Assembly (NCBI RefSeq): GCF_048403405.1
Contig: NZ_CP183135.1
Strand: one strand, 5' to 3'
Length of the DNA: 64,000 nt
Source of the DNA: Escherichia coli
GTDB lineage: Bacteria > Pseudomonadota > Gammaproteobacteria > Enterobacterales > Enterobacteriaceae
A program made the position numbers and the translations under genes. Positions 40,831-41,377 of the stretch are shown here, piece by piece. The notes under the pieces are model-generated. The model ran no database searches and had not been told where the DNA came from. It saw only the letters and a list, made by a program, of their open reading frames with translations. The stretch's first letter is position 1; each line of letters opens with the position of its first letter.

Positions 40831-41377
40831 TAGACTGGCCCCCTGAATCTCCAGACAACCAATATCACTTAAATAAGTGATAGTCTTAATACTAGTTTTT
40901 AGACTAGTCATTGGAGAACAGATGATTGATGTCTTAGGACCGGAGAAACGCAGACGGCGTACTACACAGGAAAAGATCGCTATTGTTCAGCAGAGCTTTG
41001 AACCGGGAATGACGGTCTCCCTTGTTGCCCGGCAACACGGTGTGGCAGCCAGCCAGTTATTTCTCTGGCGCAAGCAATACCAGGAGGGAAGTCTTACTGC
41101 TGTGGCCGCAGGAGAACAGGTCGTTCCTGCCTCTGAACTTGCTGCTGCCATGAAGCAGATTAAAGAACTCCAGCGCCTGCTCGGCAAAAAAACGATGGAA
41201 AATGAACTCCTTAAAGAAGCCGTTGAATATGGGCGTGCAAAAAAGTGGATAGCGCACGCGCCCTTATTGCCCGGGGATGGGGAGTAAGCTTAGTCAGCCG
41301 TTGTCTCCGGGTGTCGCGTGCGCAGTTGCACGTCATTCTCAGACGAACCGATGACTGGAAATATAGGGGCAAATCCA
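40831..41377 (+). mobile_element. IS2: IS2 internal-deletion derivative (547 bp): both ends retained, most of orfB deleted
   Basis: Left end TAGACTGGCCCCCTGAATCTCCAGACAACC; right end ...CTGGAAATATAGGGGCAAATCCA; deletion junction at the short repeat CTGGAA. Confidence 0.85.
40922..41287 (+). CDS. insC: IS2 OrfA (InsC)
   Basis: [56 protein letters not shown]... Confidence 0.9.

Follow-up and report, generated by a model that had tools for sequence, protein, structure and literature searches.

The window, which is the whole 64-kb stretch of Escherichia coli DNA analyzed here, contains a derivative of the insertion sequence IS2 between a gene for a TonB-dependent haem receptor and a gene for a regulator of the PapB/FocB family (papB-like). 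The layout of the inverted repeats and the position of the predicted promoter P_IRL are those published for IS2 (PMC3299598). The features of the region, in order of position, are:

40641-40830, no strand assigned: left flank, on the upstream side of the TonB-dependent haem-receptor gene; IS-free relatives are homologous (blastn) exactly up to 40830
40831-41377, plus strand: whole IS2 deletion derivative, 547 bp; IS2 1-529 joined to IS2 1309-1331, with one CTGGA in common
40831-40872, plus strand: left inverted repeat (IRL), complete, 42 bp, identical to that of K-12 IS2A
40878-40886, plus strand: TGATAGTCT, which begins at IS2 position 48, the start of the predicted P_IRL
40922-41287, plus strand: orfA (InsC/InsA), intact, 121 amino acids and stop codon
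41239-41245, plus strand: A6G (AAAAAAG) motif for a -1 frameshift in the orfA/orfB overlap, identified by sequence match
41245-41358, plus strand: orfB remnant, the first 38 of 301 codons, with 38 of 38 residues identical to residues 1-38 of K-12 InsD1 and no match past these
41355-41359, plus strand: deletion junction, the sole remaining CTGGA, from IS2 525-529 and 1309-1313
41355-41377, plus strand: right inverted repeat (IRR), the outer 23 of its 41 bp, with the cleavage domain, the B element and the first part of the element after it
41378-41882, no strand assigned: right flank, upstream of the papB-like gene; homology with IS-free relatives restarts exactly at 41378
41883-42155: papB-like regulator gene, from the gene annotation

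The element was compared base by base with IS2A of E. coli K-12 MG1655 (1331 bp, locus L005) as the reference. The left tip of IS2 (TAGACTGGCC, TAGACTGGCCCCCTGAATCTCC) begins at 40831 and the right tip (GGGGCAAATCCA) finishes at 41377; each occurs a single time in the 64-kb window, with 0 occurrences expected by chance. The limits 40831 and 41377 of the first-pass annotation are exact, with both IS2 tips placed at those ends. Positions 1-529 of the element are colinear with positions 1-529 of K-12 IS2A at 96.8% identity, with 17 mismatches, the first at position 109, and the final 23 bp are IS2 1309-1331 in the comparisons with K-12 IS2A and with the closest full-length copy described below. 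Missing from the element are 784 bp, IS2 530-1313. The earlier proposal of an internal deletion derivative was borne out by this alignment, which contained one junction with colinearity to full-length IS2 on either side; non-colinearity did not appear.

A search designed to favour full-length IS2 copies returned several close ones. One of them, in the chromosome of strain 23AR0151 (L012), is a full-length IS2 with 100% identity to the element over positions 1-529 and the last 23 bp. Judged from this alignment, the element descends from a variant of IS2 still in circulation, and it shows zero substitutions relative to the L012 variant. As far as sequence comparison goes, the element is an IS2 deletion relic that lost 784 bp internally between short direct repeats.

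The left-anchored match to IS2 ends at position 529 and the right-anchored match covers 23 bp, which leaves a 5-bp overlap, CTGGA. A short direct repeat at the deletion point had been noted before, and this part stands; its length had been given as the 6 bp CTGGAA and has to be corrected to the 5 bp CTGGA. Both K-12 IS2A and the three full-length IS2 copies closest to the element have CTGGAT on the left and CTGGAA on the right, and since the left repeat continues with T and the right one with A, the exact repeat is 5 bp long. Within the element CTGGAA is present only once, at 41355-41360; CTGGAA at both places is a feature of the divergent variant on plasmid pN10c alone. The bases around the two repeats are partly alike, with CCGATGACTGGA versus CAGGTGTCTGGA (AACAGATGTCTGGA in K-12). 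A microhomology of at least 5 bp at a random junction has a probability of about 0.005, and with 1096 pairs of 5-bp direct repeats in IS2, the CTGGA site is not special among them.

The junction has the usual form of slipped mispairing or microhomology-mediated joining, a mechanism deduced from the junction alone. It is not a transposase product because both breakpoints are internal, 18-23 bp from the right tip, and neither is at a tip. A search for the deleted 784 bp elsewhere in the window, done as a test for inversion or translocation, did not recover this segment; the matches were the element itself and a 60-bp sequence at 55200-55259 with 82% identity to IS2 887-946, which resembles a remnant of another IS3-family element. 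The same remnant was matched by residues 158-176 in a tblastn search with IS2 OrfB (55199-55255; 19 residues, 57 nucleotides), and this 19-residue match was the only further orfB homology in the window.

Concerning the surviving parts, orfA had been described as intact and this holds in full: OrfA is identical to K-12 InsC1 in 121 of 121 residues and matches Pfam HTH_Tnp_1 (E = 1.8e-19), and all 17 nucleotide differences from K-12 are located within orfA and are synonymous. The A6G frameshift motif, which was named for IS2 (PMC3219604), is also in place. The weak extended -10 promoter P_IRL of IS2 starts with TGAT at bp 48-51 (Lewis et al., PMC3299598), a region retained in the element, and a sequence bound by OrfA was reported just upstream of the IS2 promoter (PMC3299598). 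The relic can probably still express OrfA, the DNA-binding regulator of IS2, from its own promoter. The open reading frame orfB was indeed cut down to N-terminal codons, albeit to 38 of 301 and not to “a few,” as had been stated. Its frame continues through the right end of the element to a stop codon at 41434-41436 (open reading frame 41245-41436). No Pfam domain was found in the orfB remnant and the catalytic (DDE) domain is gone; judged by its coding content, the element is unable to make transposase.

The first-pass annotation also regarded both IS2 ends as intact. This is correct for the left repeat, which is complete, and incorrect for the right repeat, in which contiguity with IS2 is limited to the outer 23 of 41 bp. 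Partly matching orfB sequence has taken the place of the inner 18 bp. Counted from the right tip, mismatches to the closest IS2 occur at positions 24, 27, and 29 and then from 33 onward, so that 29-30 of the outer 32 right-repeat positions match, a count aided by chance similarity at the junction. The innermost block common to both IS2 ends, TATCACTTAA in our own alignment of the ends, was lost from the right repeat. IRL of IS2 comprises 42 bp and IRR 41 bp; the right end requires the 11-bp cleavage domain plus an inner protein-binding domain extending to position 41, and single-base deletions at positions 26 and 29 of the left end abolish circle formation (PMC3299598). The right end of the relic is probably a poor substrate for transposase.

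No 5-bp target duplication surrounds the element, with GAATT on the left and CATCC on the right, in agreement with the initial observation. Intact IS2 copies are bordered by the duplications ATTAC (K-12), GTTAC (L012), and TCTGA (L013). An empty site, with the two flanks directly adjacent, was not present in any of the records searched for joined flanks. This search led to two divergent relatives of the module, pSCU-171-1 (L006) and pOkiPb01692_1 (L007), both with 90-95% identity to the window. Between the points that correspond to the IS2 tips, they contain 782 bp (L006, 2719-3500) or 785 bp (L007, 3685-4469) of AT-rich, IS-free DNA, in which no open reading frame of more than 63 amino acids and no similarity to IS2 were found.

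The simplest reading would be that the 782-785-bp segment is ancestral and was replaced by IS2, although the direction of this change is a matter of parsimony with only two IS-free relatives, and the 782-bp segment could also be a gain in the lineage of the relatives. The suggestion that the present flanks reflect a later rearrangement can be upheld as to the rearrangement, for which the native DNA of L006 and L007 located exactly between the IS2 boundaries speaks, and lacks support as to “later.” A transposase-dependent deletion of the flank would need an intact right end and is therefore more likely to have preceded the internal deletion.

Two observations were made on this segment. The internal loss of 784 bp is close in size to the native DNA replaced, 782-785 bp. 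This is probably a coincidence, and we know of no mechanism that links the sizes of an internal deletion and of replaced flanking DNA. At the right end of the native segment in L006 (about 3485-3500), the sequence is TGGATTGTGG, the first six bases of which equal the IS2 right tip read from outside (TGGATTTGCC). End-like sequences can attract other elements of the IS3 family. The end-like sequence TGGATTGTGG might have attracted IS2, or it might be a chance hexamer.

The history that would connect these data is very probably that of a dead IS2 relic, which resulted from a flank loss and a 784-bp internal deletion and was then passively inherited with its plasmid module. A full-length IS2 would once have resided in a spacer of about 1.46 kb between the haem-receptor gene and the divergent papB-like gene in a forerunner of the F plasmids of the pUTI89 type. 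Native spacer DNA beside IS2, about 782 bp, would have been lost, taking along one copy of the target duplication, either by insertion of a second IS2 nearby and recombination of the direct copies or by a transposase-dependent adjacent deletion. IS2 530-1313 may then have been deleted between the CTGGA repeats by RecA-independent slipped mispairing or microhomology-mediated joining, a loss that would have left orfB with 38 codons and without any of the catalytic domain, and that would have taken away the inner 18 bp of the right repeat as well. The outcome would have been an immobile relic, copied passively with the plasmid module. Order and mechanism of the two deletions are deduced ones, and an intermediate, a full-length IS2 with the present right junction, did not occur among 5426 complete E. 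coli genomes.

Alternatively, the relic may have originated in one step. Two full-length IS2 copies in direct orientation would have bordered the 782-bp spacer, and a deletion of about 2.9 kb would have fused the CTGGA at 525 in the left one to the CTGGA at 1309 in the right one. Such a single deletion accounts for the absent target duplication as well as for the internal junction, the IS-free relatives show native DNA between both boundaries, and pN10c indicates that another IS2 was once present in the same neighbourhood. However, no plasmid with two IS2 copies around the spacer turned up, and long direct repeats should recombine homologously, which yields a full-length IS2, far more often than via a 5-bp repeat. 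The one-step route is rather unlikely; both routes lead to the same end product and are inseparable by sequence.

The distribution of the relic was determined with a 40-mer that matches only the deletion junction, searched in 5426 complete E. coli genomes and in PLSDB. Among the 5426 genomes, 754 contained the 40-mer, which had 753 plasmid and 5 chromosomal locations (758 in all), with a median of 1 and a maximum of 2 copies per genome. Almost all copies of the element are identical, with at least 99% identity in 754 of 757 records, and both flank junctions occur together in 700 records. PLSDB contained the junction in 726 plasmids including pUTI89, 689 from Escherichia, 33 from Klebsiella, and a few from others. 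The window and such a plasmid are 100% identical over 22 kb, and the annotation of this plasmid includes sitA, a gene for a RepB-family replication initiator, and IS100.

This recurrence rules out that the element is a collapsed IS2 repeat produced by faulty assembly or sequencing. Misassembly of IS copies is frequent with short reads, but the identical junction exists in 757 records of 754 independently finished complete genomes and in pUTI89, which renders the probability of an artefact negligible.

The copies that were examined, from one plasmid, two chromosomes, and one Klebsiella plasmid, are all located between the same haem-receptor and papB-like genes, and the search with the junction 40-mer found no relic at a second site. 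The same neighbours, approximately one copy per genome, and no second site indicate a single ancestral event. This bears on the question of whether the element may be an active, non-autonomous miniature IS2 similar to a MITE that is moved in trans by the transposase of full-length IS2. In favour of such an activity, the left repeat is complete, and the surviving part of the right repeat, its outer 23 bp, contains the 11-bp cleavage domain. IS2-homologous sequences, as potential transposase sources, occur in 4789 of the 5426 E. coli genomes with a median of 3 places, a number for all genomes and not for the 754 carriers, so that a transposase source is probably common in E. coli. Against it, the copies examined among the 754 genomes and 726 plasmids all have identical neighbours, the target duplication is absent, and the inner part of the protein-binding domain of the right end is lost; at the left end, deletion of a single base at position 26 or 29 abolishes circle formation (PMC3299598). 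Mobilization in trans is very improbable. The relic is one old event that was inherited vertically with the module and not a mobile miniature element.

Several lineages document further decay of the relic. In five New Zealand plasmids (e.g., L015, NZ_CP187212.1), an IS1 of 768 bp is inserted into orfA of the relic with the 9-bp duplication CACGCGCCC (window 41255-41263). Two other plasmids (L009 and L010; NZ_CP013027.1 and NZ_CP119004.1, 4021-6615) retain no more of IS2 than its first 59 bp, after which comes ISEc43 of the IS66 family, and homology to the window restarts at 41784. In pN10c (L011, NZ_JBUBMA010000004.1, 4021-5351), a full-length IS2 of 1331 bp has a left junction identical to that of the relic and a right junction that corresponds to window position 42114, inside the papB-like gene. 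Over positions 1-529 the pN10c IS2 has 14 mismatches to the relic, which start at position 42. A second IS2, inserted at 42114, could have recombined within the first 41 bp to give the left junction of pN10c, or the site could have been used anew. As a progenitor of the relic, the pN10c IS2 was rejected because 14 mismatches from position 42 on mark it as a different variant.

As the cases of IS1, ISEc43, and pN10c demonstrate, some lineages at least can do without the relic. The locus is a compact record of the decay of an insertion sequence, with an internal deletion, a lost flank, and the later arrival of IS1, ISEc43, or another IS2 in different plasmids.

These cases also weigh on a possible use of the relic for its carrier. 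OrfA might act in trans and damp transposition of IS2 copies of the host, or transcription from the IS2 promoter might cross the shortened right end and reach the papB-like gene, which lies about 500 bp further downstream. In favour of such a use, orfA is intact together with its promoter region and the region for OrfA binding, and the protein equals that of K-12 in 121 of 121 positions; binding of OrfA was reported immediately upstream of the promoter in IS2 (PMC3299598); and no terminator-like site was found from orfA to the papB-like gene. On the other side, the copies are near-identical and recent common descent accounts for the intact orfA, so that there is no signal of selection for this gene, and several lineages destroyed the element without obvious consequence, by IS1 in orfA, by ISEc43 in place of most of it, or by the pN10c replacement. 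A scan for promoters and terminators between 40600 and 41950 yielded nothing over the expectation from shuffled sequence. Retention of the relic for such a use is quite improbable, and a regulatory side effect is possible. If the relic were nevertheless domesticated, the plasmid-encoded OrfA would be a regulator that lowers IS2 transposition in the host, or an IS2 promoter would drive a papB-like gene on virulence plasmids of the pUTI89 type.

Further observations concern the neighbourhood of the relic. The haem-receptor gene (38671-40640, minus strand) is present here as two open reading frames, with one G lost in the run at 40153-40157 (G5 versus G6), and it is intact at 1971 bp in L001 and L003 (G6). 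Either a real frameshift or a sequencing error in the homopolymer could account for the split. A run at 43965-43971 is equally ambiguous between a real change and a homopolymer error, with A7 here versus A8 in L001 and L003. Downstream of the papB-like gene, at 42599/42600, L006 and L007 hold about 680 bp of additional sequence with remnants of IS3-family transposases, another deletion in the module. A chromosomal pair of haem-receptor and DUF4198 genes (L008, NZ_CM176886.2, 670-6336) is 94% identical to the window and adjoins fyuA and yersiniabactin genes; this locus contains neither the papB-like gene nor IS2, and homology to the window stops at 40779.

In RefSeq, the region is already labelled “transposase; frameshifted; incomplete,” a partial transposase pseudogene. 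The feature is an ordinary IS remnant that was already annotated there, and its importance beyond annotation is slight. The proper annotation is that of a partial IS2, IS2 1-529 joined to 1309-1331, and neither that of a “frameshifted transposase” gene nor that of a mobile miniature element. Literature searches returned papers on the mechanism of IS2 and no description of this relic; seeming matches in papers on pUTI89 referred to IS26 and not to IS2. Since the two flank junctions and the internal junction are unique sequences, they can be used as a lineage marker for the haem-receptor/papB-like module of pUTI89-type F plasmids, which occur in about 14% of the complete E. coli genomes, and which is also present in some Klebsiella plasmids.

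Compared to IS2 itself, a member of the IS2 group of the IS3 family represented here by K-12 IS2A, the element is alike in the left repeat, the promoter region, orfA, the A6G motif, and the outer 23 bp of the right repeat. It differs by the lack of 784 bp, which correspond to 263 of the 301 orfB codons including the catalytic domain plus the inner 18 bp of the right repeat, by the lack of the 5-bp target duplication, and by showing no sign of mobility. With IS-adjacent deletions and with the products of recombination between two IS copies, the relic shares a flank junction that is not the original one, the disappearance of about 782 bp, and a break exactly at the tip of the IS. The sequence of the relic reveals neither the original end nor the route in this comparison, and no intermediate was found.

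Spontaneous deletions between short direct repeats in E. coli arise by slipped mispairing, as in the classical studies of lacI deletions. Their endpoints lie in a short perfect direct repeat of which one copy is left, as is the case here, and nothing sets the element apart from them. Bacterial MITEs and further non-autonomous IS derivatives that arose by deletion, finally, share with the relic a small size (547 bp in this case), an origin by internal deletion of an autonomous IS, and terminal sequences of both ends. In contrast to them, the relic resides at a single fixed locus without a target duplication, has one truncated repeat, and still encodes a complete OrfA.
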